A stretch of DNA of 64,000 nt from Candidatus Obscuribacteraceae bacterium (GTDB lineage Bacteria > Cyanobacteriota > Vampirovibrionia > Obscuribacterales > Obscuribacteraceae): contig JBGAHS010000010.1 of NCBI GenBank assembly GCA_044226015.1, forward strand, positions 160,001 through 224,000, written 5' to 3'. The notes below the pieces were generated by a model. It was not told the origin of the DNA, did no database searches, and worked only from the letters and a program-made list of their open reading frames with translations. This document shows positions 10,543 to 45,077 of the stretch, piece after piece. The first letter of the stretch is position 1, and the number at the start of each line of letters is the position of its first letter. A program made the position numbers and the translations under genes.

Positions 10543-12090
10543 CTACTTCTTTTGGGTGAATATTCCTTCGACAAAACTTGTTAGCGGAGCGGCACTTAGT
10601 TGAGAAGGTAACGTGATGCCGAACAATGTTGTCGTTGTTGACGCTGCAGTAGTCTTCTGAATAGATACGGTTGTGGAAGCTGAACCCTTTGCAAAAAGCA
10701 ATGGCGCAACTACACGTGGTGGCTTAATTGGTAGTGGAGTTGGTGTTCGCAAGGGTGGTCTCAAGCCAGGCGACCTCGCCGGAATAGTCGGTATCGGTAA
10801 CGGTCGGGGGGTTAGCACTGGTCGAGGGATTCTCGGCGTGGGAGTTGGAGTCGGAGTTGGAGTTGGAGTTGGAGTTGGAGTCGGAGTTGGAGTCGGAGTT
10901 GGAGTTGGAGTTGGAGTCGGAGTCGGAGTTGGAGTTGGAGTCGGAGTTGGAGTCGGAGTTGGAGTCGGAGTTGGAGTTGGAGTGGGAGTTGGAGTCGGAG
11001 TTGGAGTTGGAGTTGGAGTTGGAGTCGGAGTCGGAGTTGGAGTGGGAGTTGGTGTCGGAGTCGGAGTCGGAGTTTGATTTTTTGCAAGATTTGCAATCAG
11101 AACTTTCATCTGCGGTGTGTCCTGTCCGTTGACAGGTTCCACTCCAAATACATATGCTTGCCACCATGGACCTGCAGACCAGTATGTGTAGCCGTCCCAC
11201 TGTGCCTTGTTTGCATAGATGTATTTCAGCATCGCGTCAAGATCATCCAGCCCACCCGTGCTAGCTGGTACCCCGATTTCGCCAAGAAAACCTGTGCGGT
11301 TGTTTGCTTTCAACCATGCTGTGAATCCCGTTAAGTACGAAACGGCTTCCGCAACACTCACTGTATCTGTTGTGTTTCCGGAACCGTCGTAATTGACGTA
11401 TTCATGAACTTCAAATGTAAAATTGTTCGCAGAGTCTGTGAGCTTTAACATCTCCGCCCCAGTAGTTTCTACGAAGTTTCGTGCATGGTTCCAATATGGT
11501 GCAGACACAACTATCAGGCTGGTATTCCCTGCAGCTCTAATTGCATTGATTGCTTCCTGAGTCGAAATACGCCAGGTCTCAGAAGTCATGCCTGCACCAT
11601 TTGGTTCCCCCATCAAACTTAGAATTACTTTTGAGTTGTTCTTATATCTGGTTCCTATCTTGCTCCAGAAGTCTGCGAAAACTGAGTTAGCAACGCCACC
11701 GGGAACGCCCACAATCGCACCATAATACTCACCGTGATTATGAAGTTCGATCATTGTGGTCATGCCTTTTGCTGCGGCATAGTTTACGACTGCGTCTATC
11801 TGCGCAAGGTAGTTCGGTTCAAGGGCACCATTGGCGGTGGGTTGTGTTCGTTCCCATGCGATGGGAAGCCGAATTATGTTCATACCCCTTGCAGCAAAAT
11901 AGTCTAGTTCTGCTGTAGTAGGAAATACATAGTCGTAATTATTGACGCCAGGAAAAACGCCAGCACCCCATTCAGCGCCTGATATGCTTACGCCCTCGTA
12001 CTTCATTCCGCCAGTGGCAGCAATTGAGCTATTGTCCACCAGGAGGGCGAAGGAAAGCGCTGTGACTATTGGAAGGAATTTTCGCAGCAT
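10543..12090 (-). CDS. Secreted glycoside hydrolase family 5 (endoglucanase-like) with C-terminal Thr-Pro repeat tail
   Basis: Signal peptide; [29 protein letters not shown] (acid/base Glu), FEVHEY, FLGEIG (nucleophile Glu) and YWSAGPWW motifs. Confidence 0.9.
10834..11073 (-). repeat. 6-bp coding tandem repeat (GGAGTY on + strand) encoding about 40 Thr-Pro units
   Basis: Run of ggagtt/ggagtc/ggagtg units about 240 bp long. Confidence 0.97.
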
Positions 12091-16049: not shown

Positions 16050-19000
16050 CTAGTTCATCGCTATGTTCTCCGGATTTGTTCTGCGATATTCGCGATAGCT
16101 GCCTGAAGACTTGCGAACTTGCATGATGATCGCGGCGTTCTTCAGGACTGTGTGAACGATGTGGACATCATTTCTGTCTTTCGATTGCTTCATCGCAGCC
16201 CAGGTCTTCATACCTCCAAGTGCTGACATGATGGAGAACTCAGATGTATGAACAGCTGACGAGCCAACAAGGCTAGATGTTAGTGTGCGGTGACCGATGC
16301 AAGCTATTGGATTGACTTGATCGAACGTACCCATTTGTCCGCTCACCGTAAGGTGATGTCCCGGTGCAAGTTTGATTTCTTGCTTACCAATTGTAGTTGC
16401 GACACTGCCAGAATGGTTGTCGTGGAAATTGTAAATTGACACACCCTCTGGTTTCGCTACTACCAGTACCACTGCCCCGGCGTTCACCTTGATGCTACCG
16501 AAAGCGGTTTCGACTGTTGTGTCTTGTTTTGGCACCATCAAAACGCTTCCGCGTTGCAAGTTAAGCTTGCCAGCATTCATTCTTCCATCGACCCCGAGCT
16601 TGCCGAAGTCTCTTACAGAGCCATTCTTCATGCCTGTTGGCATTTGTGGCGCCAGCAGTGTATGCAAGCCCGCCGGCTTGAATTCAGAGCTGATTTCAAC
16701 AGTGTCGCTTGCTGGATCAACCATCAACTCTGCACTGCTGTTGGTGCGCACATTTGTCCCATCAAACAGAATGAAGTTTTCTGGAATGAAGCTGAACTCG
16801 TCTCTTGTTGCAGAAGTCGAAGGCAGGTATTGTGAGACAGCTGATTTAACCGCCTCAGCCATCTTGTTTGCCGTCGCCGCTGTCTGAGTGGCTACGTTGT
16901 TGACCCACGAGGTGAATCCATTCATCGCATTACCATTGTTGACACTGTTGTTCGTGCTGGGTGCTGCGGCGGGAGCTGCATTGGCTGGACTCACAGTAAC
17001 TGCGTTTGTTGGACTTAGCAGGCTGCCACCAACTCGAGTTGGTGCATCCAATGGAATAGGGTCTGCCTTGACTGTTGCACCGGCTCCGATTGTGATGGTT
17101 CGTCCAGCTGTTGTGGTGTCGAATATGACATCAGCACCAATTGCTTGCAAGTTTGCGGTCTTACCAGGAGTCGCAGGCTGAATATTGCCAGCGTTGGCGC
17201 CAGCAAATATGCCGCCACCATTCTTGGTGGTGATGACAAACCCTGGTAGTGAGGTGACCTGTCCAGATTTCGCAGCCAGTACGTTGGCAATTCCTATGGT
17301 TACAGAACCCTGGCTTGTATTGGTCGCCCCCTTGATGATTGTTGTTACCTGCTTACTCGCTGCTATGTTGATAGTACCGGAAGCAGTGTCTTTGTTCTGA
17401 AGGATGATATTGCCACCTGATGCCTGCACATTACCATTGATGTTCATTGCACCAGCAGCGTTGACTAAGGTGATGTTTCCAGCGCCAGTCAGCGAAGTGC
17501 TAGGTGCCTTGGTCGAAACACCAAGAGCAGTAAGTGTTCCAGTTGTCTGGAATCCGAAGGAAAGCCCAGCTGTTGAGACTCCCAATGTGACAGCAGCACC
17601 TGTGTTGCTCACATTCACCAGAGCATTGGTCAATGTCGACAATGTGATGGTTCCGCCGTTGACGGTGGTAGCCAATGGTGCGGAGGACGAACCTATGTTT
17701 GACACACCTGTGGTCTTCAGTGTCAGAGCACCTGCATTTGTTGTGATCGAGCCGCCGACACTTCCAAGGTTTGTTGCATTGAACAATGATGTGCTTACGT
17801 TGTAGCTGGAGACTGCGGTGCCCACGGGAGCTGAACTTGTTCCCACCGTAGATGTAGCGCCACCATTGATGGTGAGCAATCCATTACCGATAATTTTGGT
17901 TCCGCTTCCGGTCAGGCTGCCGCTAACATTGAATGTGATGTCGCTTGCACCAGCTACACCTGCAACTACGCCATTCAAGAGTATGTTGTTGGCACTGCCA
18001 GAGTTCGCAGTCAGTGTTATCGAACGAGCGCTTATCGAGCCAACGGTCATTTTGCTTGCAGCTGTAGCGGTTTGTGTGACCACAAAGGAGGCACCCCCAC
18101 TAGAGTTGCCCAGGGTAAGTGCTGCAGAGCTATCTGACACTGCTACTGGTCCTGAGGAGTTTATGGTCAGGAGTGGAGCATTCGTTGCAGTTGCCAGTGA
18201 CACACCTTGCGTTCCTGCATTTATTGTCAACGATTTAGCTGCTTTGATGTCGCCAGATGTTTGGGTGACATCACCTTTGCCCGAAGCTGTCAATGTCACA
18301 ATTCCGTTTGTTGTGGTTATGAGCTTGAATGCACCGAGATGAACTGAACCGCTAGTCGCGTCAGTTGCGGCAAGGTTGATGCTAGTGGTGGCATTGATGT
18401 CACCCCCTAAGGTTATCGCAGCGGTGCTGTCTTGTGCCTTGCTGACGAGACTGAAAATAGTTCCCTTTGAGGCAAGCAATGTACCGACGGAGTTGTTCTG
18501 TAAGTAAACTGCGTTTGTCGTGTTTGCGCTCAGGTTGGAAGCTGCCACCACTATGGGGCTCTTCGTAGCTCCGATCGCTCCAGTACCAGAAACTAAGGTT
18601 ACCTTGTTGGCAGTTACCACTCCCTTATTAAGGACGGATGTGATAGTTCCTGTACCTGAGGCATTTAATGCTGCGTTGCCAGATTCGTTAATAGCAGAAC
18701 CAATAACGATGCTTCCCTTGCCTGGGTCAGTCATATTTATTGTTAGGTTTGTACCGCTGATGTTGCCAGTTGTCGTGACGACTCCTGATTTCGCATTGTT
18801 GTTAACAACCAGGTCGGTAACTGTAGAGTTGCCCAGGCTGAATGAAGCCGTGGCGTTGAGTGTGAGAGTTCCTGGGAAAGAAAGTGAGACAGTTTTTGCA
18901 CTCGTATTGACGGTCGCCGGCACGCCGAACCCACCGGCTCCTGCACCTAGAGTCAAAGCAGTGACAGTAGGTCCGAATGTGAGACCAGATAAGCCGGTGA

Positions 19001-22000
19001 TGCCACCATTGGAGCCACCAGCCGTTAAGGTGAAGGTGGCTGGCAGCACCGCCGGCAGATTTGAACCTACTGCGATGTTACCCGTAGTGAGGCTTCCGAC
19101 AGTTGAAATTGTCAGAGCACTCTTCGGGTTGAGGGCTCCGTTGAGAGTGACAGTACCGCCCTTGATGCTGACGATTGTGCCGCCAGATACGGTGCCCGTG
19201 TTCACCGCGCCACCAACATTGATGGTCAGGTTTTTCACGCCCATCGTGATTGTTTGACCTGTGCTGGTGAAAGAGGCGGATGTCTGATTAGCGGACACGA
19301 ATGATAGGTTCAATTTGCTTGAGTCAATATTGCTTCCTACCGTCATCGTACCGGTATTGTTGCCATCCCCAATTTGTAGTGTTCCTGCGGTGATGGCGGC
19401 TATGTTTGCAGGGCTTACGTTGAAAGCCGCTGCGCCACCCAGAGATATTGCCTGGTTGAAAGTAGATGGAGATAAAGTGACTGTGCTTGAGCCAGCAGCC
19501 ACTTTTCCATTTAGTTGCAGCTGACCTCCAGAAGAAGGTACTTCCAGGGTAATCGGTGAGTTGCTAGAACTTATGGTTGTGCCTAGATTCTGAGAGAAAT
19601 TCGGTAACGAGTTTATCGTCACGCCCTTGCTGCCTGAAATGTTAGCTCCTACACTCGTATTTTCGGTGAGCACTGACGATGAGTTTGTCAGGACGATTGA
19701 ACCGCCCGTCGAACTCAGCGCACCATTTATAGTGACTTTGTTTGAACTCGACGACCAGTTTATGCCACCAGTTGATGCAACGGTTGACCCTGAATTCACC
19801 GTAATACCATTAGTAGCGGTAAGCGAAAATAGTCCAGCTGTATTGGTTACCGCAGCCTTCACTAGAGAGTTGGTGCCAAACTGCACCGCGGCTGCGCTGA
19901 CGTTTATGCCCGTGCCGGCCGTTTTCAGAGCTCCGCTTCCAAGAATGAAGTCGCCATCATTGGTGATTGCAGAGAACCCTTTAGAAGCAGTTATTGTGGA
20001 TGTTATGTTGATGGGTGCTTGTTTTACACTGTTATTGATATTTATAGTTCCAGCACTAGCTGTGATGGCGCCATTAATGATGGTGCTTCCCTGAACGTTG
20101 AAGGTCAAACTGCCGGACGTAGTTATCGCTCCCTTTCCTGCAAGTGCAGCTCCAGTTGTTGGGTCAATGTTTATTCCGAATGTCGAACCCTGGTTGCTGC
20201 TTACATTGAACGCTAATGGTTGTGTGCTTCCTGTAAGAATCAACGGGCTGTTAATTACAACATTGTTTGATGTGCTTGAGTCGCTGATATTTACATTAAT
20301 AGGATTGACCGATTGGAAATTGGTGAGGGTTACGCTTAGTGGCAATGCTGGATTCGGTATGTTCAATGCGGACAAACGCGAACTCAGGTTAATCGGGTAG
20401 AGAATCATCGTTCCTCCCGTCACTGCAAAAACGTTGTTGTTTTTGGTGAAGGTCAATGCCCCGCCGATGACCCCGCTGGTTTGCTGAGCCGTGATTGTTT
20501 GAATCGTACTTGAATCAGTCAAATCGAGGCTCGAAATAGGAGTGCTGTTTGAAGCCCCTAGCTGCGTGCCACCACCGAGGGTGATTGAGTTCTTGTTACC
20601 GCCAGTAACACCACCGCTCTGGAATGCAACTTGTAATGGCGTTGTACCGAGCGCAAAAATCGTGTTCTGAGGTCCTTGAGCTGTTATGCCTGCCGTTCCA
20701 AACGCGATGAAGTTTGCAGGCTTTGTGGTTGGAGAAATAACTGTGAATACGTTGGCAGGATTCGAACCTTGAACAGCTGGTACCGGTGATTTCTGGAACC
20801 AGGTTGGCAGTCCAATTGAAACGGACAGTCCATATTGTCCGCCATTGTGCGCAAATATTTGGGAATTCGAGCCAATGCTGATTAGTCCTGAGGTATTGTC
20901 ATTCTCAAGTATTATTCTTCCGGAATAGGTGTTTATGGTCGTTGAGGAATTGACAACCAGGTTTCCGCTCAGGGTTGAGCCCACCCAGGCTGTGATTGCA
21001 CAATTGGTGCAGTTCGGGTTAGGAGATGAACCAGAGTACTTTCCACTCGCTAACAAATTTCCAGTGATGGTGAGATTGCCAGCGCCGGTGCTGCCGACGC
21101 CGTTAGTCTTCAGGAAGATGTTTCCTGCCGTTATGTTACTTGGGGTAGAGAAGGTGTTGGCTGTCATTGTGACAATACCATCACCTGCACCAGTTGTGGT
21201 GACAGCATCAGCCCCTGGCAATCCGAAGGCGTCTTTCTCGCCTTGGACGGCTGGTACGTACGAGGTATTTGCTGATGCGCCTCCAGACCCACCATTTGCA
21301 AAAGTACCGCCGATAGCAGACGGTAGAAGTGTCGTTGTTCCGCTGGAAAGCAATCCACTGTCTGTGTAGTAGTGTCCACCGAAGCCGCCGACATTTCCAC
21401 TGCCGCTAGTTGCTGTTGAAAAATAGGGTAACCCATTTGTCGGCGAGGTTAGTGATTCATTTGGCGCCCCACCGAAGACACCGGCAGCATATACTCCAGA
21501 AGCTTGGCTCTTGTTTCCGAGTATTGGAAGGTAGGCTCCACCTCCCCATCCGCCGAAACCTGACTGTTGCTGAGGGATAGCGGCTGTCGATGCGATGTTC
21601 TGGGTGTCGCCACCGCCGCCACCGTATGTACCACCACCGCCAGCGCCTCCGAGTCCTGAGAAGTTCGCGGAAGTTGGCTCAAGTACACCGGCGCCTCCGC
21701 CGCCACCACCAGCGCCGTAGCTGCCACCGCCGCCACCGCCTGACCCACCATATATGCCTGATTTAGAGTTGGTCATGCCGGTTCCACCATTGCCACCTCG
21801 CCCGCCTGCGACGGCGAAGATATCACCGGCTACTTGAATGGTTGTTCCGAGTTGATTACCTCCTGTGACTGTGATGTCACCAGCGGAGCCTCCGGAGCCT
21901 CCAGTGCCTCCGGCACCATGTTCGGTGATACCAGAACCGCCGACACCTCCGCCGCCTCCTCCGCCGCCTCCTCCGGAGGAATTGATACCTCCGTTGACGA

Positions 22001-25000
22001 GAACATAACCATTTGATTGAATCGCCACTACTCCACCTGCGCCGCCATTGCCTCCGTTGCCTCCAACAAGGAGCCCACCTGCAAACGGTGCTCCAGTGCC
22101 ACCACCACCTCCTCCTCCAAAAGACTGAACTCCTCCGTTTACGCTTACTCCCAGGTTGCCATTAACATAGACAGCTCCACCGGCACCACCTGCGTAACCG
22201 TTGAGACCTGTACTGCCTGGCGCAGGCTGATAGGGGGGCGCGATGTTCGTGGTGACCGGAGTAGAACCCGAAAGTCCTATAGATACTAGCTCTTGCGTGC
22301 TCACAAAACCGCCCGCTACGATTGATATACCGGATTGAGTGAGCCCGATCTCCGACACCTTGTTATTGACTGCGCTTCCCGCGCCAGAGGCGGATACTTT
22401 CTGGGTCGAAATTGATCCGTTTGGGAGATTCCCTGTGAAAAATTTAGTGGAGTAATCACCAGTGTTTATGCCAATAGACACTGGTGCTACTACGCTTCCG
22501 GCCGGAGTAGCTGTCGCAATGTTAACGCTGCCGACTCCTCCGTAGACATTCCCTGTCGAGATGGTTACGTCCGCAGTTGGTCCGCCGGATGCCTCACCAA
22601 CGATAGCGATCCCAAAAGACCCCCGAGCCGAGGTATCTGTGCCTGAAGGGCTGTATGCTCCTATTGTTGAGCTAGACGGAATTGTAATTGTTCCGCCGAT
22701 GAGACCTGCAACTGTATTCGAATACGCAACAACCGCGATGTCTCCGCCAAATCGACTTCTGTCCGTCTGCGTGTTGAAAGAGTTGTTATCCGTTATAAGT
22801 GGTAGGGATATGTCTCCGCCAATTCCTGAACGGCCGAGAACAGACACGCTGTTGCTAGCCATGGTGGCAGTAGCGCCAGCCAACAGGAAGATACTGCCTC
22901 CGCCACCAGGAATGGGGCTCGTCCCTGAGCGTTCTGTAGCCGTGAGGCTGGCCTTCACACCTGTGGTGCTTATACTTCCAGCGGCTGCTAAGAAGATGTT
23001 ACCGTAAGGCGTGTCTATAGCATTTGTAAAGGTAATTGAGCCCTGGTTTTGTGAAAATGGTGTCGAAATTAGCACCATGTTTCCAGTTGAGTTATTACCA
23101 GGTGATACTCCAGTGTATATTATTTTCGTCGTGCTTATATTGTCCAGGTACAAGTTACCGTTGGCTTGTATAGCAAAACTTCCCGCTGCGGAATCGTGGA
23201 AGCTGACTCCATCGCCTCTGCCCTGAATATTGAGTGGACGTCCAGGGTTGTTAGTGAAGTCGCCTACGGCACCGTTTGAATTGATTTGAAGATTATTTGT
23301 GAAAATCGGCAGCAAGGTGCTGGAGTTATAGGCGATCGTGCCTCCGGGTCCGGTTCCTGGAGTCGCGCCACCGACAGAGTCAAGGTATACTTGCGAGGCC
23401 GAAATTGTTCCCTGTAAGCTTATGTTCTGAGGGATGGTGGCGCTGAATTTTGCTGGGGTTACAATTGTTCCCAAATTCAAGGCTGAAGCCTGAAGTGATG
23501 TGCTAGTTATACTTATGTTGCCGGGTGAGACAGCCGTCATGGCGTTTTGGAATCTATTAGAGTTTCCGCCTATCGTGACGCTAGTTCCAAAAAATGCCAG
23601 TGTTACTGTCGAAATACTTGAAGCTGACGCTGAATTGTTCCAGGTAAGTCCGCTAGGACTGAGTGAGACAATTGGAACTATCAATCGAGAGTCACCAGTA
23701 ATTGCCAGGTCCGTTGCCGGATTGTTTATGCTGGTGAATCCGCCTGCACTATAAAATACTGGTTTGATATTGCTTGGACCTTGCGTCTCTTGGATGCTAG
23801 ATGGCGCCCCGCTCGAGAATGCTAAAGTGGTTGTAGGCAAACCGGGCAAAGCACCTGGAGCTGTCGAGTAAAATGCGGGAAGATTGCTTGAATTCAGAGA
23901 CACGCTAATGTTGCTGGTAGAGGCGCTGTTGAAGGTTGCTGCTCCTTTTCCAGTTGCTGCATTGTTGATTCCAATAGAAGTAAGAACACTTCCTGTGTAA
24001 CTAAGGCTGGTGATGAATGTGCCTGCAGGTACTCCAGCGCCTGAGACAGTCATTCCCAACGCGAGTTGCGTTGGAGCGCTGGATATGGCGATGGTTTTGT
24101 CACCAATATTCGCGATGCTGCCGTCGAATTTCGAAGCTACTGTGTTGTTGAAAAATCCGAATAGATTGCCTTGATTCGAACCTGACCCGGTACTAGCATC
24201 CACGGCCGCTACAATTGTAGTACCAGAAGCCGCACCGGCAGATAGGAATGCGTAACCAGCTCTACCTAGAGAAAGAGCAGCTTTCATGGAAATGTTTGTG
24301 ACGCTGATGCCGCCTGGGGTCGATATCATGACTGACCCGGCATCACCAGAAGCTACGGACGAGTTTTGGTCCGTGTTGATCAAGGTTCCACTGATGGCGC
24401 CAGAGGTACCTATCGATACAATTTCTACGTCTCCTCCAGCGCCTGTGTTGTTTATGCCATTGTTGGTGCTTCCGCCTTTAGTGGAGATGGTGCCGAAACT
24501 GACGTTGCCTGTACCTAATGTGGTGTCTCCCGCGAAGAGGATGACGGTGCCTCCGTTAGCGCCCGATCCTGAAGTTGCTGAAGTGCTGTCACCCGTGGTG
24601 ATGTCGACAACGTTAATGTCTGCGGGTGTGAGTATAGCCACGTTGCCACCTACTCCTGTGACAGGCTTCGCGCCGACCCCAGGGTCTGTGATGGTGAATC
24701 CTTGCGTTGAGATGTTTCCAGTGACTCTTATACTGGTATTGCTCGTAGCCTTGTCTAAGCCGGAAGTCAAATAGACAGCTCCACCTGAACCACCGAGAGT
24801 AGAGTTTGCATGTGTATCAATGCTGGCTAAGTCGATTGCAAATGTACTATTGTTTGAACCAGCATTGACTGTTACAGAGCCACCGTTTGTTGCGAGATTT
24901 CCAGCCTTGACACCACCACTAACGTAGGACGTACCGGTAGCATTTCCAGAAAGTACGTTGCCTGAGAGGTCGTTTATGACCAGTGGCTGTCCTGCAGTTG

Positions 25001-28000
25001 CCCCGGGGGAGGCGGTCGAGAGTATTATGGTGCCTGTGCCATTAACTGTTCCATTAGTGTCGATGTTCTGAATATTTATCGTAGGTCCGGAACTGTTTGG
25101 ACCCTCTGCCACAACGATGACATTACCGCTGCCGCCAATGTACGTTGTTATTTTAGTAGAGGAATTAAATATTCCATTGAAGTAAGAACCTGTCGAGATG
25201 TCACCTGTTAGAGTGACTTTGCCGGTACCAGCTGCGGTGCCATACGCCAACATTGTAACTGCGCCGCCAGAACCAGTAACGTTTGAGAAAAGACCAGAAA
25301 AGGTTGTGTCAATAACCGTTGAGCTTCCGCTGGTTAGTGTTATGTTGCCACCAAAACCTGATGAACCATTGATTGAAATAGTGGGTGCTGTACCGATTTT
25401 TCCGGTCGTTGCTGATGCGCCAGCCACCAGAATAACGTTACCGCCGTTTCCGTTTTGGTTTGTGATTGAACCACTGGAATCTATCTCAAGTCCGGTAAAC
25501 GTCGATGAAATATTTCCGCTGGCAATCATTTCGACTGCACCACCGAAGATGCCGGTAGTGCTGACATTCTTAAAGGTGATATTGCCTTTCTGAGAGCTAC
25601 TACCTGCCAGTAGTGTGACGGAGCCGCCGCCGGCACCGGAGCCAGAAGTTCCAGTTGTAACTGTGCTAGCTGACAAATTCAAATTAGTTCCCGCAATGAT
25701 GCGCACCTCTCCACCGGTCGCTGCAGAGCTGTAGCCCGTGGTCGTGATATTGCCACCGATTACGATGTCTTCGTTTACATTCGCGCCAAGAATGCCTGAG
25801 GTGATAATCACATTACCGCCAGAACTCGATGCAGCGGTGACCCCACCCGGTCCAAGTGTTGAGGACCCTGTGGAGATAGACCCGGTGCTGATAGCCGTCG
25901 CGGCTGATATGTTGCGTCCCGCAGTGATCGTTACGTTACCGCCGGTAGAGCCGGTAGCGACGATGTTCGCACCGGTGGTGGAGATGTTGCCGACACTGAC
26001 TGCTCCGGTGATGTTTGCTCCGCTATTTGGGTCTCCTGATTGCAGGGCACCGCTGGCGGTGAAAGCCAGATTGCTGCCAACCTGACCAGTCTTTATCGTG
26101 ATGTCACCGCCGCCGGCTTGGGTTCCGTTGGTAGTGTCCATGTTTTGAAGAACTATGGTCACAGGGTTGGTAGCATTTGTAATTTCACCAGCAGAGACGA
26201 ACACGTTACCGCTCTTCCCGACTGAGGCGGGAAGCTGACCCCCTTCTGCCTCGATTGAGCCGGCGATGCTTATTCGGCCTGCTGTGTTGCTAACTCCGCC
26301 AGCAGCCAGAGTAATGTTGCCTGCATTGCCTGCAATGTTGTTCGCTCCAACTGAACTTCTGATTGCAGTTGCCTGACCGCTGAACAGAAGATCGCCGCCG
26401 CTTGAAGATACCGTGGTGGTGCTGAGTGTACCATCGCTATTCAGTGTCGATTTGACACCTGCCAGGACAATGATGTTGCCTGCTGAACCGGTGGTTTCAC
26501 CACCCGAATTGATATTGTATTGACTAGCGCCAAGTGAGGCGGCGTTCGAGGTGATCGAACCAGATGCCACCACTTCAACCAGACCGCCAGATGTGCCCGT
26601 AGCTGAAATTCCTGTAAATGTAATGGCTTTCGAGCCAGTGCCTCCGGCGTTTAGAATGACGTTACCTGCAGCGCCTGTTGGACTGACAGAATGGTCGCTG
26701 CTGTCGATAGCTTGCAAAGACAAGGTTCCTGGACTTGCTACCGTGACATTACCACCGTGAATTAAGCTGGTAGTTGTTATGTTTCCTGTGACGGTGATGT
26801 TTGATCCTGTTGTGTTCGTGGCTGTCAGAGACACGTTGCCCGCGGCTTTTGTCGTGCTCGAAGTGTCGATAGCACCTGTCACGGTAATTGCAGCTCCAGC
26901 GTTGGCGTTGCCGCCTGCAGCGATCGTGACATTGCCTCCGCTCGTAGTGAGCGCCCCTGTCGTTACAGCTCCATTAACAGGAGTTCCACCTATAAAGGAT
27001 CCTGACTTTACAGTTCCGAGTGTAGTGTCGATGGTGATAGCTTTTGCAGCGGTATTTGGGGTGCTTGTGTATACACCGATTGAGCCCGTTCCTGACGCAC
27101 CACCAGCGGTGTTAATGTTGCCCAACTGCACAGTTATCGGTGTTCCAACTGTACTTTGTGCGCCTGCTACTACGAGTACATCACCATTCTTGCCTGTGCC
27201 GTTGCCGGCGGTTTTGATTGTCGTAGTCGAGCCTAACAAGACATGACCTCCAACGGTCGCATCGTTAGGGTTAGCAAAAGCAAACAGAGTTACATTGCCA
27301 CCAGCTGAATTGAGTTTGCTGGAACTGCTATCGATTATGGTGCCCTTCAGGTTGCTGAGCAAAATGTCGCCGCCAGTCTTTGATGGACCCAGAATGCTCG
27401 GAGACTTGTAGTTGACACCGGCGCCGAGCATCACCGTGCCCCCAGCTTTCGCATTTGAGGAGGTGTTGATCGTGAATGTATCGGTGTTAGACGTGATGTT
27501 GCCGCCAGCTAGAATGACGTATTCAGTTCCAGACAGAGCTGCGGTTTGTGAGATGTCGATATTTCCAGTGTTCGAAATGAGAGGGTCGCCTGAAACATCC
27601 CAAACACCCAGGCTGAGGTTCTCAGTCTCGGACCAGAAATGCGCTTCGCAACCGCTGACGTTAACGGTACCTGTCACATCGCCTACGTTGACCTCAATGT
27701 TTGAGCCTTTGAGGTTCAATGCTTGTGAAAGGTAATTTCCATCCTTCATGTTCAAGTTGTTGCTCAGGCTCGAACCTACATTAATGGAGCCCATTAGCGC
27801 TGAAAGTGTGCCACCAAGTCCATCTACTGAAGTAGCCGTTGATGCTGTTGCACTTGCGATGTTGATATTGCCTGTCGATGCCGTGATGTTTCCGCTGTTG
27901 ATGTAATTTCCAATGGCGGAATTCAAATTGACATTGTTATTTGCGAGCAAGTTGCCCGAGTTATTAATGGTTCCACCTGCGTTCAAAGTCAGGTTGCCAC

Positions 28001-28679
28001 CAGATGTGATGCTGCCTGCATTGTTGATGTTCTGCACCGCATGCAGTGTCAGATTCTGACCTGCCTGCAGCGAGGCAATCACACCTCCAGCCAGGTTATT
28101 AATGTTATTGGCGTTAACATCGAGTTGTTGTCCGTTACCCGAGAAGTAAAGTGCACCAGCATTGGTCAGATTACCAGTGATATTGAGAACATTGTCTGTG
28201 AGCAAGCTGGTGACCTTCACATTGTGTGGAATCACCATGTTGCTCAACGTATTGTTGGTGCCTGCACTGATGGTTGCAGAACCGCCGACGGCGCTTCCAA
28301 GTCCGCTGATGAGCAGGTTCTGTTGTCCCGAGGTCAAAACTTGATTTACTGCGAGCACTTGTGCCGGCGTCAGTAGGCTGTTTGCATTGACTAGCTGCAT
28401 CAGCCCGCCAGTCTTGATTGCGGTAGGATGGAAACCGGCAATTCCTCCGGCTAGGACGCTCTTGGTGGTTGCCCCCAGGTTCAGGTTGGAAGGCAGTGCG
28501 CCCGTCATTGCTGATTTTTGCGATACAGGCACTGTGACCGCTGTAGCGGGCAACATGCCTGAGTCAGGCCGCAGAGTCTGTTCTGCCATGGCCTGCGGTG
28601 AGGCAACGAGTTGTAATAAACATAGAAAACTCGGCCAGGTGACCATTTCCCGGGAAGTTTTGGTACGCAAGAATTGCAT
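16050..28679 (-). CDS. Giant secreted beta-helix/filamentous-haemagglutinin-like exoprotein A (4209 aa) with Gly-rich insert and conserved FecR-like C-terminal domain
   Basis: Uninterrupted 12.6-kb ORF; signal peptide ending PQAMA; G/S/T/N-rich GGnVtlxAG repeats; N- and C-terminal domains homologous to the genes at 36359 and 45078. Confidence 0.85.
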   Translation of the reverse strand: MQFLRTKTSREMVTWPSFLCLLQLVASPQAMAEQTLRPDSGMLPATAVTVPVSQKSAMTGALPSNLNLGATTKSVLAGGIAGFHPTAIKTGGLMQLVNANSLLTPAQVLAVNQVLTSGQQNLLISGLGSAVGGSATISAGTNNTLSNMVIPHNVKVTSLLTDNVLNITGNLTNAGALYFSGNGQQLDVNANNINNLAGGVIASLQAGQNLTLHAVQNINNAGSITSGGNLTLNAGGTINNSGNLLANNNVNLNSAIGNYINSGNITASTGNINIASATASTATSVDGLGGTLSALMGSINVGSSLSNNLNMKDGNYLSQALNLKGSNIEVNVGDVTGTVNVSGCEAHFWSETENLSLGVWDVSGDPLISNTGNIDISQTAALSGTEYVILAGGNITSNTDTFTINTSSNAKAGGTVMLGAGVNYKSPSILGPSKTGGDILLSNLKGTIIDSSSSKLNSAGGNVTLFAFANPNDATVGGHVLLGSTTTIKTAGNGTGKNGDVLVVAGAQSTVGTPITVQLGNINTAGGASGTGSIGVYTSTPNTAAKAITIDTTLGTVKSGSFIGGTPVNGAVTTGALTTSGGNVTIAAGGNANAGAAITVTGAIDTSSTTKAAGNVSLTATNTTGSNITVTGNITTTSLIHGGNVTVASPGTLSLQAIDSSDHSVSPTGAAGNVILNAGGTGSKAITFTGISATGTSGGLVEVVASGSITSNAASLGASQYNINSGGETTGSAGNIIVLAGVKSTLNSDGTLSTTTVSSSGGDLLFSGQATAIRSSVGANNIAGNAGNITLAAGGVSNTAGRISIAGSIEAEGGQLPASVGKSGNVFVSAGEITNATNPVTIVLQNMDTTNGTQAGGGDITIKTGQVGSNLAFTASGALQSGDPNSGANITGAVSVGNISTTGANIVATGSTGGNVTITAGRNISAATAISTGSISTGSSTLGPGGVTAASSSGGNVIITSGILGANVNEDIVIGGNITTTGYSSAATGGEVRIIAGTNLNLSASTVTTGTSGSGAGGGSVTLLAGSSSQKGNITFKNVSTTGIFGGAVEMIASGNISSTFTGLEIDSSGSITNQNGNGGNVILVAGASATTGKIGTAPTISINGSSGFGGNITLTSGSSTVIDTTFSGLFSNVTGSGGAVTMLAYGTAAGTGKVTLTGDISTGSYFNGIFNSSTKITTYIGGSGNVIVVAEGPNSSGPTINIQNIDTNGTVNGTGTIILSTASPGATAGQPLVINDLSGNVLSGNATGTSYVSGGVKAGNLATNGGSVTVNAGSNNSTFAIDLASIDTHANSTLGGSGGAVYLTSGLDKATSNTSIRVTGNISTQGFTITDPGVGAKPVTGVGGNVAILTPADINVVDITTGDSTSATSGSGANGGTVILFAGDTTLGTGNVSFGTISTKGGSTNNGINNTGAGGDVEIVSIGTSGAISGTLINTDQNSSVASGDAGSVMISTPGGISVTNISMKAALSLGRAGYAFLSAGAASGTTIVAAVDASTGSGSNQGNLFGFFNNTVASKFDGSIANIGDKTIAISSAPTQLALGMTVSGAGVPAGTFITSLSYTGSVLTSIGINNAATGKGAATFNSASTSNISVSLNSSNLPAFYSTAPGALPGLPTTTLAFSSGAPSSIQETQGPSNIKPVFYSAGGFTSINNPATDLAITGDSRLIVPIVSLSPSGLTWNNSASASSISTVTLAFFGTSVTIGGNSNRFQNAMTAVSPGNISITSTSLQASALNLGTIVTPAKFSATIPQNISLQGTISASQVYLDSVGGATPGTGPGGTIAYNSSTLLPIFTNNLQINSNGAVGDFTNNPGRPLNIQGRGDGVSFHDSAAGSFAIQANGNLYLDNISTTKIIYTGVSPGNNSTGNMVLISTPFSQNQGSITFTNAIDTPYGNIFLAAAGSISTTGVKASLTATERSGTSPIPGGGGSIFLLAGATATMASNSVSVLGRSGIGGDISLPLITDNNSFNTQTDRSRFGGDIAVVAYSNTVAGLIGGTITIPSSSTIGAYSPSGTDTSARGSFGIAIVGEASGGPTADVTISTGNVYGGVGSVNIATATPAGSVVAPVSIGINTGDYSTKFFTGNLPNGSISTQKVSASGAGSAVNNKVSEIGLTQSGISIVAGGFVSTQELVSIGLSGSTPVTTNIAPPYQPAPGSTGLNGYAGGAGGAVYVNGNLGVSVNGGVQSFGGGGGGGTGAPFAGGLLVGGNGGNGGAGGVVAIQSNGYVLVNGGINSSGGGGGGGGGGVGGSGITEHGAGGTGGSGGSAGDITVTGGNQLGTTIQVAGDIFAVAGGRGGNGGTGMTNSKSGIYGGSGGGGGGSYGAGGGGGGAGVLEPTSANFSGLGGAGGGGTYGGGGGDTQNIASTAAIPQQQSGFGGWGGGAYLPILGNKSQASGVYAAGVFGGAPNESLTSPTNGLPYFSTATSGSGNVGGFGGHYYTDSGLLSSGTTTLLPSAIGGTFANGGSGGASANTSYVPAVQGEKDAFGLPGADAVTTTGAGDGIVTMTANTFSTPSNITAGNIFLKTNGVGSTGAGNLTITGNLLASGKYSGSSPNPNCTNCAITAWVGSTLSGNLVVNSSTTINTYSGRIILENDNTSGLISIGSNSQIFAHNGGQYGLSVSIGLPTWFQKSPVPAVQGSNPANVFTVISPTTKPANFIAFGTAGITAQGPQNTIFALGTTPLQVAFQSGGVTGGNKNSITLGGGTQLGASNSTPISSLDLTDSSTIQTITAQQTSGVIGGALTFTKNNNVFAVTGGTMILYPINLSSRLSALNIPNPALPLSVTLTNFQSVNPINVNISDSSTSNNVVINSPLILTGSTQPLAFNVSSNQGSTFGINIDPTTGAALAGKGAITTSGSLTFNVQGSTIINGAITASAGTININNSVKQAPINITSTITASKGFSAITNDGDFILGSGALKTAGTGINVSAAAVQFGTNSLVKAAVTNTAGLFSLTATNGITVNSGSTVASTGGINWSSSSNKVTINGALSSTGGSIVLTNSSSVLTENTSVGANISGSKGVTINSLPNFSQNLGTTISSSNSPITLEVPSSGGQLQLNGKVAAGSSTVTLSPSTFNQAISLGGAAAFNVSPANIAAITAGTLQIGDGNNTGTMTVGSNIDSSKLNLSFVSANQTSASFTSTGQTITMGVKNLTINVGGAVNTGTVSGGTIVSIKGGTVTLNGALNPKSALTISTVGSLTTGNIAVGSNLPAVLPATFTLTAGGSNGGITGLSGLTFGPTVTALTLGAGAGGFGVPATVNTSAKTVSLSFPGTLTLNATASFSLGNSTVTDLVVNNNAKSGVVTTTGNISGTNLTINMTDPGKGSIVIGSAINESGNAALNASGTGTITSVLNKGVVTANKVTLVSGTGAIGATKSPIVVAASNLSANTTNAVYLQNNSVGTLLASKGTIFSLVSKAQDSTAAITLGGDINATTSINLAATDATSGSVHLGAFKLITTTNGIVTLTASGKGDVTQTSGDIKAAKSLTINAGTQGVSLATATNAPLLTINSSGPVAVSDSSAALTLGNSSGGASFVVTQTATAASKMTVGSISARSITLTANSGSANNILLNGVVAGVAGASDITFNVSGSLTGSGTKIIGNGLLTINGGATSTVGTSSAPVGTAVSSYNVSTSLFNATNLGSVGGSITTNAGALTLKTTGVSNIGSSSAPLATTVNGGTITLSTLTNALVNVSNTGAAVTLGVSTAGLSFGFQTTGTLTALGVSTKAPSTSLTGAGNITLVNAAGAMNINGNVQASGGNIILQNKDTASGTINIAASKQVTTIIKGATNTSQGSVTIGIANVLAAKSGQVTSLPGFVITTKNGGGIFAGANAGNIQPATPGKTANLQAIGADVIFDTTTAGRTITIGAGATVKADPIPLDAPTRVGGSLLSPTNAVTVSPANAAPAAAPSTNNSVNNGNAMNGFTSWVNNVATQTAATANKMAEAVKSAVSQYLPSTSATRDEFSFIPENFILFDGTNVRTNSSAELMVDPASDTVEISSEFKPAGLHTLLAPQMPTGMKNGSVRDFGKLGVDGRMNAGKLNLQRGSVLMVPKQDTTVETAFGSIKVNAGAVVLVVAKPEGVSIYNFHDNHSGSVATTIGKQEIKLAPGHHLTVSGQMGTFDQVNPIACIGHRTLTSSLVGSSAVHTSEFSIMSALGGMKTWAAMKQSKDRNDVHIVHTVLKNAAIIMQVRKSSGSYREYRRTNPENIAMN

Positions 28680-35132: not shown

Positions 35133-36011
35133 GTGAAGATCGATTTTCTCAAAACGGTAACTTGTTCAATTGTTTTTAGCTGTTCTCTTATGGCAGCTTG
35201 TTTCGCTGCCCCTGCAGAGGCAGCCCCGTCTAAGTCAGACGCGAAGATGACTGAGATACTTTCCAGCAAGAGTAGCGTAACGGAAAAAGCTGAGAAACTT
35301 CGGGTGGAAGGTGCATCTCAGCTGCAAAAAGGTGATGCCACAAAGGCGATAGTATACTTGCGTAAGTCGATGGAACTCGACCCTTCGAACGCCGAGTCAG
35401 TTTGCGACTATGGGGAAGCGCTCTACTTCCAGAATAAGTTCAATCCTGCTTTGCTTGAGTATACCAAGGCGATCAAAATGAACCCCAAGTTGGCTCGTGC
35501 TTATTTCGATAGGGCTATGTATTTTGAGGGAGAAAAAAAATATCCTGAAGCCATCAAAGAGTTTGGATTTGCTGTTCAGTACAATCCTAACAATGCTGAC
35601 TATTGGGGCTCACGAGGCAAGCTTTTGGACACATTAGGGAGACACGCTGAAGCCGTTGCCGACTACACAGCTGCACTGAAGGCGGATCCTGAAGCTCGTT
35701 GGCCTCACGTTCAACGTGCCACCGCCTATGAAGGCATGAAGCAGTTTGACAAGGCTGTTGAAGACTACAATATTCTGCTGAAGCGTTACCCTGATGAGCA
35801 GGATTATTACGAGTTTCGAGGCAAGTCGTATTTTCTAGGTGCTAAGTATGAGCAATCAATAGCGGACTACTCAAAGGTAATAGGCTATTCTCCTAAGTAT
35901 GCAGGGGGGTATCTGGGAAGAGCCCGCGCTTACGAAAAGTTGGATGGAAAGAAATCGGCACGCGCTCAGTCCGACTATGCTATGGCTAAAAAGTATGGTT
36001 GGGAACCATAA
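35133..36011 (+). CDS. Secreted TPR-repeat protein
   Basis: Signal-like N-terminus; about 7 TPR repeats (ALLEYTKAIKMNPKLARAYFDRA, AVADYTAALKADP, SIADYSKVIGYSPKYAGGYLGRA). Confidence 0.9.
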   Translation: MKIDFLKTVTCSIVFSCSLMAACFAAPAEAAPSKSDAKMTEILSSKSSVTEKAEKLRVEGASQLQKGDATKAIVYLRKSMELDPSNAESVCDYGEALYFQNKFNPALLEYTKAIKMNPKLARAYFDRAMYFEGEKKYPEAIKEFGFAVQYNPNNADYWGSRGKLLDTLGRHAEAVADYTAALKADPEARWPHVQRATAYEGMKQFDKAVEDYNILLKRYPDEQDYYEFRGKSYFLGAKYEQSIADYSKVIGYSPKYAGGYLGRARAYEKLDGKKSARAQSDYAMAKKYGWEP

Positions 36012-36177: not shown

Positions 36178-36358
36178 ACAAAAATTTACCTTTGAATGAA
36201 TGTCAATACGGCTAATGGCGGATAGTAAACCACTCTGGCAGCCTATAGGCTTAGTGTAGGTGGATAGTCCAGGGGCTTGCATTTTAAGCTTCTTCACCGT
36301 TGAAACTGGGTTTGGCTGGGTCCCAAGCTCATACGCCTATCGATTCGAGTTGAGGTCT

Positions 36359-39300
36359 ATGAAAGCATCTACAAGTTCTGCCCTCGTGTTCCTGCTGTTT
36401 ACGCAAGTTATCCATCCGCTGACTGCTCTTGCTCAGTCCAGACCTGGAAGTGCGTCGCCCGGCAACTCGTCGAGTTCTGGGGTAACTCCGATTAATTTGG
36501 ACCTGAGTTCGAAGAACCGTAACTTGACCGCGAACAATCTCGGCAGTTCCGGGCAGGTCTCGATTAAGGTTGGAAATCAGACCATGCAAGTCAATGCAGC
36601 AACCATGCTGACACCAGCTGAAAGGCTTGCGGTCTACCAGGTGCTGTCAACGGGGCAGCAATCGATTCTGCTTGGTAGCCTCGGCAATGCAATCGGTGGA
36701 AGCTTCAACATCGGCGCAAAGTTCAACCAGTATGTGTCGAGTCTGGTGATTCCTCGAGGTGTTACTGCAATTCAGAATGCAGCAGTGAACAGCAATTTGA
36801 GCCTGGCTGGTAATTTGACAAACGCAGGCAGTTTGTTGGGTGTGTCGACGAGCCAGGACTACAGCTCGCTTTTGATCAGCGCTCAGAACATCTATAATCG
36901 TCAGGGGGCGCTCATTTCGACCATGCTCCCAGCCGGGGGAATCGCGGGCGTTAGTGGTGCCATCTCCAGTCTAAATTTGTCGCTGAGCGCGCTGAACAAT
37001 ATTGTGAACTATGGTTCGATTATCAGTTCAGGCAATTTGAACTTAAGTGCTGGCAATTCTATTATCAATGCTCTCCCTGCGGGAACCAGTGGTGCCGCAC
37101 CTCTGATGCAAGCTGCAGGAAATTTGAGTTTCAACAGCAGCCAAATTGCAAATGCAGGTTTGATTAATGCTATTAATGGAAACGTCAATTTTGCGACACA
37201 AGGTCTGCAATCTCTAAATATTAATAACAAGAACGGTACAATTCAAGCGCTTCTCGGTAGCATCAATTTGCGGGACGCGTTTTTTAGTGGCAAGGCTGAT
37301 ACCAGTTTGCTCGGTGGGAATTTGCTCTCTAAAGAGTTGAATGTCTTCTCGAGTGACGGCATAGCCAATGTACACGTGAAGGATCTCACTGGTGTGGTCA
37401 ATGTTTCTGCCGCTTGTGCATTCATAACTGCAGAGACAGACAATCTTTCAATCGGAAGTCTCAATCTGACTGGAGACCCTCTAATTGCCAATGCTGCTGG
37501 TGACCTTACTTTGCTAAGCAGCATGAATTTGATTACAAACGGTGCTGACCTGGCATTATTGGCAAAAGGAAATATAACTGCTGGAAACGCGCTATCAATC
37601 GACACGAGTTCTCTGACAGGAAGCGGTGGTGACATTACCATAGTTGCAGGTGCCAACTTCGCAGCTCCGGTAGGGAATGTGACGAAGGTTACTGGTGCGT
37701 CCAGCACCGGTGGTAGTATCAACTTTTTGAGTCCCAGTAGCGTAAGTCTCATCGACAGCTCTGCCAAAGGTGCTTCGGGAGATGCTGGCAGCATACAACT
37801 TCTAGCTTTTGCTGGCAGCACTAAAGGGTCTGGAACGATCACTCTTCCTTCGTCAATGCCGATTAACGCCAACAGTGTTGGCGGAAAGGCAGGCGATGTT
37901 ATCATCACTGCTGGTGGTCAGAGCGCTGTGGTTCTCGATAACACTAGCCCTGCCACCGCTAAAGCAAGTACTGTGCAAGTTTCTATATCGGGTGGCGTCA
38001 CCACTGTCGGTGCCCTGTCCGCCGTGAACTTCATCGGTCCAATACATAATGTAGGGTTGGCAGGCACGGGTAGCACCAGCATAATCGCTGCACAACCCAA
38101 GGTGTCAACTGGCGGTGTGACCATAACAGATGGCAGCATCACTGCAGGTTCGTTTAGCGCTGGAACTCCTACGGCATCGAACGGACGCATCTATCTCGGC
38201 GCAATTGACAGTTCTAAAGATCTAACTGTTTCTTCTGGCAATACCATTGTATTTAGTGAGGCTGTAAATGTTGGTGGCAATGCTACAGTAAGCACTACAG
38301 CCAACAATGGCAATATTTCAATTGAGAAAAACTTCAAAGCCGGTGGCAACATCAGTCTGACTGCACACGGCTCGGGGTCGATTACGACACAAAGCTTTTT
38401 TATTGCCAGTCCGCAAGTGGGAAGTGGTGCATACGGCGCTGCCATTCAGTCTTTGGGGAATTTTGTCTATGTGCCGAACAATGCCAGTAATACAGTAAGC
38501 GTTATTGACTCTTCGACGAATCTAGTGGTTGCCACAATCGACTTGAGTGCAGTTGACATAGTCGCGCCTCGTGGCGCTGCATCGTCAGCCAATGGGCAAT
38601 TCATATATGTAGTCGGCAACTCGTCTACTGCCGGTCAGGGCACAGTTGTTGTAATAGACACTTCCAATAATACTGTAAGCACAACCTATTCCTTCCAGTC
38701 GGGAACACCATCGGCTAATGCAAATTTTGAACCGAAGTTTGTTGGCGTTTCTGGCGGCAAAGTTTATGTTTTGAGTGATTACGCCCTCGGGACGTCCACG
38801 CCAACTGCAGCTAGCCAGCTTACTGTGATAGATCCATTGAATCCCGGCTCTCCAGTTAATGTCTCTCTGCCAGGAGCCGTGGGACGTGGTAATTTTGGTG
38901 GTCTGGCTATAAACCCTCAGGGCACACGTGCTTATATCGCTAACACTGCAAGTAACAATATTTCTGTAGTTGATTTGAGCAACAACACCGTAACAAGCAC
39001 CATCAGTCTTGGCACGGCAGGCACTACAGGACCTACAGCATTGTCTTTCAATCCTACAGGCAGCCGTTTGTTCGTTGCTTACGCAGACACGGCGGGCTCT
39101 GGGTCGATGAGTCTCAAGGCTATCGACACGCTGCCCGGTTCTAATACATTCAATCAAGTTGTTTTGACTCAGCCTTTCGCTAATGCAAATCCAGCGGCTA
39201 TTCCTCTTGCAATTAGCAGTACTCCAACTGGTGCTCAACTAATCATGAGTGATACCAATCTGGTTGGTATACAGAATCCGATTTCATTGAGCAATACTGA

Positions 39301-44782: not shown

Positions 44783-45077
44783 CAGATTCGGTGAATTCTT
44801 AGTGTTAGCTAGAATACAATGGCGAAATTTGTGTCGCCGAAAACTCCTTTGTGGCAATTCTTTTGCGGTGTTTGCTATCTATCGTCTAAGTCCGATTGAA
44901 TGATAAAAAGTTCTGTTAAATTCTTAGAGGGTAAGGCTTTTGACTGATTGTCAGTAGCTCGTTGATCCAATACTCTTAATATGGGAACTCAGATTCACTG
45001 CGTTTTTCGCGCGTAAACGTTGCGAGAAAAAATGTAGTGAGTCTTACAAAGTTAATCCAACGAAAGAGTTGAGGAAC

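Follow-up and report, generated by a model that had tools for sequence, protein, structure and literature searches.

The window analysed here, a 64,000-nucleotide stretch of a Candidatus Obscuribacteraceae contig, holds three giant open reading frames (ORFs) of 4209, 2840 and 2758 amino acids, each of which closes with a homologous domain of about 180 residues, hereafter the tail. Giant secreted protein 1 (16050–28679, minus strand; 4209 aa) opens with a signal peptide, likely by a hydrophobicity heuristic only. This is followed by an N-cap domain (28143–28487, minus strand; LNL-S...LTPAQ...GG) found by a genome-wide count to be common to the giants, a long G/S/T/N/A-rich body, a low-complexity linker running from the end of the repeat body (ADPI) to the terminal domain (16617–17054, minus strand), and the terminal domain itself (residues 4022–4209; 16053–16616, minus strand). 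Read from its composition, the body of protein 1 is probably a beta-helix. Giant secreted protein 2 (36260–44782, plus strand; 2840 aa) comprises an N-cap, YVTN beta-propeller repeats and a terminal domain at 44183–44779 (plus strand), and is followed by its tandem paralogue, giant secreted protein 3 (45069–53345, plus strand; 2758 aa), with a terminal domain at 52731–53342 (plus strand). Proteins 2 and 3 (36260–53345) share 67% identity across their first 350 residues, and the inserted YVTN-type beta-propeller, at approximately residues 720–1000, is a candidate ligand-binding module. Directly upstream of both, in the same orientation, lies a gene for a secreted TPR protein (35133–36011, plus strand), for which a link to the tail system is a possibility. 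The bodies of the giants contain 58–62% G/S/T/N/A and 6–8% charged residues, a composition that suggests beta-helix fibres; their repeat periodicity is weak, and 100–250 low-complexity residues precede each tail. Elsewhere in the window, a secreted GH5 cellulase-like protein (10543–12090) has a long Pro-Thr linker, its own C-terminal tail being unannotated, and Rfam gave no match anywhere in the 64,000 nucleotides.

The motifs that the initial annotation quoted as shared by the three proteins are all present where it had placed them: SIYNFHDNHSGSV at 16401–16439 (minus strand), SIYNLHDEHRGSV at 44369–44407 and SIYNLHDGHRNSV at 52926–52964, together with G-x-H, H-R/A, S-E/K-F-S and KNAAI, which were found in all three tails. 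Pairwise identity of the window tails is 33–35%, far above chance. The tails are enriched in His, the last 190 amino acids of the three proteins containing 8 of 22, 5 of 17 and 8 of 18 His residues.

An iterated profile search of the whole source genome (labelled G000 in locus names) allowed the other passengers of the domain to be surveyed, and returned 73 tail matches in 65 carrier ORFs. Among these matches, 59 are full terminal copies, and the 14 that are partial, internal or the first of two were excluded from the 59-row alignment used below. Tail-carrying genes make up 7.5% of the source genome. The domain is terminal in 59 of the 65 carrier ORFs and in 150 of the 150 top representatives; among the source-genome ORFs of at least 2,000 aa, 46 of 65 end in a tail, the largest reaching 14,391 aa. 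The N-cap occurs in 39 ORFs, 37 of which also have a tail, and the remaining two N-cap giants end just past the linker, so the tail is not needed for every giant. The N-cap itself had no TPS or PDB match, the control of the PF05860 search being silent. Some carriers are small, a signal being joined to a single tail or to two. An FKPI[AG][FY]-like motif stands just upstream of the tail (16600–16660 in the window, and in paralogues) in 22 of 59 copies, compared with 12 of 1190 background windows, and the two tail-less giants end shortly after such a motif. The genome also contains a second class of giant ORFs, 2,500–7,750 aa long, whose N-termini are acidic and which lack both a signal-like stretch and a tail; they are located on G000:C12, C9, C11 and C3 (for example C12:364671–387932).

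Beyond the source genome, a search of 1.84 billion representatives recovered 2,764 tail clusters at 50% identity, and the outside set referred to below consists of 156 domains taken from the 150 best proteins once four source-genome proteins had been removed. Within the order Obscuribacterales, to which the best pyrH matches assign the source genome, 98 of 107 genomes carry the tail, as against none of 200 genomes sampled elsewhere in the phylum. We found no description of the tail family or of the system in the literature searched, a scope that did not extend to subscription journals and bioRxiv supplements, and no paper in it joined Obscuribacterales to FecR or filamentous hemagglutinin.

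The AlphaFold2 model of the protein 1 tail, built on the 59-row alignment, is confident (mean pLDDT 91.7, pTM 0.88) and consists of a beta part followed by three helices. The beta part corresponds, by model and structural matches, to a FecR/PupR juxtamembrane-type subdomain (residues 4038–4148; 16236–16568, minus strand), and the helical subdomain, which carries Lys4180, covers residues 4150–4188 (16116–16232, minus strand; model helices 129–135, 137–143 and 148–167). The closest structures were PupR (6OVM; Z 10.0, rmsd 2.4 over 108 aligned residues) and BDI_1681 (4M0H; Z 9.9), and the next unrelated match scored Z 4.2. The PupR match spans the juxtamembrane (CJM) subdomain and stops at residue 257. 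The FecR-like beta fold proposed in the initial annotation is thereby borne out.

This relationship is not mirrored in family assignments. None of the 59 tail copies matched the FecR family PF04773 above cut-off, whereas four other genes of the source genome do, and profile alignment of the tail with these four true FecR domains was weak (probability 35.8%, E 4e-4). Pfam and NCBIfam scans assigned the tail to no meaningful family, the tail profile found nothing significant among PDB sequences, and a word-indexed homologue search with one tail sequence gave no match. The Gly-Thr dipeptide at which FoxR self-cleaves (Gly191-Thr192; PMC11637429) is absent from the window copies, as had been noted from the sequence: the aligned positions read GA, DS and GA, the first being Gly4068-Ala4069 of protein 1 (16473–16478, minus strand, by profile alignment). 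At the position of the Thr, a Thr is found in 7 of 59 genome copies and 25 of 156 outside domains; in the outside set, the residue after Gly4068 is Ser in 88, Ala in 39 and Thr in 25.

Four His and one Asp had been taken as invariant and as marking a metal or catalytic centre, perhaps of a self-processing protease. All three window copies do carry them, and the invariance is apparent among these copies because they are close relatives, falling in one tree group of six within the family. Over the wider family, however, the five residues are kept together in only 4 of 59 paralogues and 3 of 156 outside domains, and the SIYNFHDNHSGSV motif, with its H4086, D4087 and H4089, proved variable in the alignment counts. 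In the 59 full terminal copies and the 156 outside domains respectively, H4086 is found 15 and 27 times, D4087 35 and 102, H4089 17 and 66, H4109 13 and 63, and H4130 9 and 47, and none of the five is present in 21 paralogues and 47 outside domains. This lack of conservation, an outcome that the initial annotation had itself named as refuting, refutes such a centre as a property of the family; a tail fold that matches no protease also speaks against it, and we regard the idea as very improbable, even though a [D/E/H]-D-x-H...H...H pattern occurs in 38 of 215 domains and clusters on a tree built without the pattern columns (10 changes, versus 35.6 with shuffled labels). This pattern may mark a metal site restricted to the His-bearing subgroup.

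The near-invariant positions of the tail lie elsewhere: Lys4180 (59 of 59 genome copies and 153 of 156 outside domains), Arg4131 (57 and 150), Glu/Asp4147 (56 and 153) and Gly4107 (54 and 149). Arg4131 is paired with Glu or Asp in 203 of 215 domains and replaced by an Ala/Lys pair in two; in window proteins 2 and 3 the Arg4131 and Glu4147 positions are jointly altered to Ala and Lys. Since the two residues are modelled on adjacent strands (16239–16289, minus strand) and change together, the pair is consistent with a salt bridge. The net charge of the tail is positive.

Which outer-membrane component might handle these proteins was not apparent from the source genome alone, where gene-neighbourhood clustering revealed no recurrent transporter near tails; the association described below is visible only across genomes. 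Genomes with few tails led to a conserved small tail-only gene located near an unannotated barrel gene, of which the source genome has three copies. Its AlphaFold2 model (pLDDT 83.4) has 12 strands, and the protein is predicted to be a 12-stranded outer-membrane barrel. The closest structures were COG4313, KdgM/NanC, FapF and autotransporter barrels (Z 13.7–15.7), none standing out, and the fold alone gives the barrel no function because small-solute porins score equally well. Pfam, PF04575 included, gave no match for the six barrels scanned, and the language-model neighbours of the barrel include BBP2_2 and one Slam-family cluster. We found 591 homologues, and all the named ones among the best 120 are designated 'hypothetical'. 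Of 80 genomes of the order, 75 have the barrel, and of 200 genomes from the rest of the phylum none does. Of 41 barrels, 32 have a PTD[VI]TP motif at the N-terminus; the small core tail proteins contain it too, as do the linkers of 5 among 18 tail proteins encoded at barrel loci (carriers include L209:5779–6984 and L167:9534–10472), and a PTDLT is found in the linker of window protein 3 (52557–52571). The motif might be a common site of modification, cleavage or binding.

Barrel and tail genes are tightly linked. Within 1.5 kb of a tail or giant-protein start we found 20 of 41 barrel genes, compared with 0 of 30 TolC and 0 of 26 BamA control genes from the same genomes (0 of 56 together) and with a baseline of 2.1% for adjacency at this distance in the source genome. 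At clade-B barrel loci, a tail lies within 6 kb in 18 of 40 cases and a tail or N-cap in 29 of 40, representing 12 of 15 genera; the other 11 loci, some of them on short contigs, have neither. These 40 loci were taken from the listed matches in the sequence of the listing, two of them merged into one region, together with one chosen in the knowledge of its adjacency; the set leaves out further listed matches and 69 unlisted ones. Without the chosen locus (L214), the figures become 28 of 39 at 6 kb and 19 of 40 at 1.5 kb. The set comprises 27 genomes of 15 genera that are related, so p-values overstate the linkage. In clade A, a small tail-only gene is found no more than 12 kb from at least 37 of the best 63 barrels. 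The neighbours of barrels include several short tail-only proteins with no N-cap, which points to the tail as the linked element.

The two genes are also co-distributed, with a Spearman coefficient of 0.63 between barrel and tail counts over 80 genomes (tail counts near 31 being lower bounds), and three of the four tail-less genomes also have no barrel. One part occurs without the other in genome G235, which has barrels and no tail, and in G009 and G237, which have tails and no barrel that we could find. In the source genome, neither of the two clade-B barrel genes adjoins a tail gene, and three barrel genes would serve about 60 tails. Skp paralogues were found at 12 of 40 barrel loci and TPR genes at 15 of 40; counted per barrel gene, 13 of 41 have a flanking TPR gene no further than 1.5 kb away. 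Besides the Skp/OmpH gene at bamA, the source genome has three extra paralogues, one directly before a barrel gene and one between two giant genes (loci L216 and L217; G000:C8:343562 and C12:466326). The proposal of the initial annotation that the domain is an anchor or secretion signal thus gains indirect support from its terminal position and its tight linkage to an outer-membrane barrel, and the tail probably marks an undescribed export or anchoring system.

This linkage has a bearing on whether the tail could instead anchor the giants to peptidoglycan, LPS or a glycan through its Arg, Lys, Ser and Tyr residues, independently of the barrel, with gene proximity reflecting co-regulation only. 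The near-invariant basic residues, the positive net charge and a gene that often follows the core small gene, read from sequence with no Pfam hit as a GT-C-like membrane glycosyltransferase, would all suit a polymer ligand. The direct adjacency to one particular barrel family, rather than to TolC or BamA, would be left unexplained, however, and the conserved Arg looks paired with Glu, and we consider polymer binding distinctly unlikely.

In the source genome and in G282, a TPR-CHAT gene is located between the barrel and the small tail gene. The conserved cluster at L167:4851–12888 (G000:C9) consists of the barrel, a TPR-CHAT protease, a small tail protein, the GT-C-like glycosyltransferase and a Ser/Thr kinase. 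The TPR-CHAT protease could release or process tethered proteins. In addition, one tail is part of a hybrid histidine kinase, in which it follows the signal peptide and precedes the membrane span, an arrangement that would place the tail in the periplasm; the fusion lies at L071:2935–6378 (G000:C6), and several relatives have matching ORFs of comparable length. The FecR fold, this fusion with the similar long ORFs of relatives, and a core small gene set in a cluster of barrel, TPR-CHAT protease, tail and kinase would be expected if the tail reads the state of the barrel or fibre and signals to inner-membrane kinases or proteases, as FecR does, with tail-only proteins ancestral and the giants acting as sensory antennae. 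For PupR, both the juxtamembrane and the STN subdomain are reported to be needed for partner binding (PMC7186176), whereas in the tail the STN subdomain is replaced by helices. A strongly hydrophobic segment beyond residue 110 occurs in one carrier among the matches listed (65 carriers), and no sigma-factor gene recurs in source-genome neighbourhoods. A primary role in signalling is quite unlikely in our judgement.

A docking partner or translocon was also sought among known exporters. The source genome encodes a single Omp85, which is BamA-like and adjoins Skp; exactly one Omp85 was found in 26 of 27 relatives and none in the 27th, and with one Omp85 per genome there is no TpsB. Genome searches for ShlB (PF03865), Slam (DUF560/PF04575) and the SprA/Sov translocon gave no match, the control being silent in each case, and the autotransporter barrel PF03797 was not found in the source genome (its control matched in 3 of 14). 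Two secretins are present, one of them with an STN domain, as are PilC/TadB-type genes, which makes type IV pilus or type II and Tad machinery alternative routes. Docking of the tail to the secretin STN domain was considered because FecR partners are STN-like, and no conserved linkage was seen; the candidates of an ad hoc barrel predictor were inner-membrane proteins and were discarded.

The presence of these secretins and PilC/TadB-type genes would allow a secretin-based or BAM machine to translocate the giants whole, with the exported tail clipping onto the outer face of the barrel. The barrel-tail linkage would be equally expected in that case and the barrel does have conserved loop positions, while type B CTD cargo such as SprB on PorP/SprF offers a precedent (PMC9143113). 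Against this arrangement, the T9SS component SprA was not found (in a search whose control was silent), and the kinase fusion suggests a periplasmic tail. Export of multi-thousand-residue fibres is not known for type II systems, and attachment at the outer face appears rather unlikely.

The fold of the tail, its terminal position, the size of its family, its occurrence together with the barrel across the order and the adjacency of the two genes are documented here. On this basis, we propose that the tail is an unnamed FecR-fold domain that docks the giants onto a dedicated, predicted 12-stranded barrel for export or anchoring, a reading to which we assign an even chance and in which the binding step draws all its support from gene context. 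The giants would cross the inner membrane by Sec via their N-terminal signal, and a Skp-like chaperone and the TPR protein, encoded at many barrel loci, would hold the chain unfolded. The N-cap and repeat body may then thread through the barrel and fold outside as a fibre, while the folded tail beyond the linker would remain on the periplasmic side, bind the barrel and tether the fibre. Periplasmic retention is expected because a folded domain of about 180 residues is too large for a 12-stranded pore, and the kinase fusion together with the FecR fold points to the same compartment; the linker could span the pore. That two giants have no tail speaks more for retention than for an indispensable export signal. 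The small signal-plus-tail proteins would dock at this surface too, in an accessory or regulatory role, and the conserved Arg, Glu/Asp, Lys and Ser would form a structural or binding core, the His residues being a feature of a subgroup.

Neither the tail nor the barrel has a family name, and how proteins of 2,000–14,000 residues cross the outer membrane of a non-photosynthetic cyanobacterial relative with a single Omp85 is a puzzle. If the proposal is correct, it would represent a new route of secretion or anchoring in which a signalling fold has been reused as a sorting tag, and possibly a tool for the display of very large proteins. A cognate pair of barrel and tail can be tested directly in E. 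coli.

The periplasmic domain of FecR, PupR and FoxR has the twisted beta fold in common with the tail, and in both cases an extracytoplasmic location and an outer-membrane barrel as partner are likely. FecR regulators, in contrast, have a cytoplasmic anti-sigma domain and a membrane span ahead of this domain, both lacking in tail carriers; where PupR continues into a C-terminal STN subdomain, the tail protein ends after three helices; and the cleavage site of FecR and FoxR is not conserved in the tail, which terminates giant secreted proteins. Type Vb systems (FhaB/FhaC, HMW1/HMW1B) also comprise giant, signal-bearing, probable beta-helix proteins whose N-terminus bears a conserved cap and whose barrel is encoded by a separate gene close by, and some TpsA proteins are known to be retained in the periplasm at their C-terminal end. 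Their TpsB is a second Omp85 with POTRA domains, whereas tail-bearing genomes have no second Omp85 and the tail-linked barrel, with its 12 predicted strands, lacks a POTRA domain.

Type XI systems (Slam/DUF560, with TbpB-like cargo and Skp) resemble the present one in that a dedicated barrel gene adjoins genes for cargo proteins sharing a C-terminal domain, in the involvement of Skp and in a nearby TPR protein. The Slam barrel, however, belongs to DUF560/PF04575 and has 14 strands, while the barrel here is predicted to have 12, shows no PF04575 match in the six copies scanned and is accompanied by TPR as a separate gene; type XI cargo ends in an eight-stranded barrel, unlike the FecR fold that closes cargo of up to 14,391 aa here. 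For type XI, the adjacency of a dedicated barrel gene to cargo with a common C-terminal domain is reported in bioRxiv 2024.09.26.615229, and the involvement of Skp in PMC9090332. T9SS cargo with a type B CTD likewise pairs giant proteins that have a C-terminal domain with a dedicated barrel, the domain of a giant adhesin being described as bound to PorP/SprF for anchoring (PMC9143113); fold and phylum differ from those of the tail, and SprA was not found here, the control being silent. Autotransporters (type Va) and FapF are 12-stranded, polypeptide-passing barrels and structural neighbours of our barrel model (Z 13.7–14.2), but type Va carries its barrel at the passenger C-terminus, whereas the tail is not a barrel and the barrel is a separate gene for many passengers. 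FecR regulators, type Va, type Vb and type XI cargo thus each have a defining feature that was tested for here and is lacking. We tentatively suggest, as a possibility short of even, that Obscuribacterales have a secretion class of their own, in which a free-standing 12-stranded barrel, its own Skp-like chaperone and a TPR protein would export dozens of fibres, up to 14,000 residues long, and tether them, with a repurposed FecR-fold tail as their address and independently of TpsB, an autotransporter barrel or T9SS.
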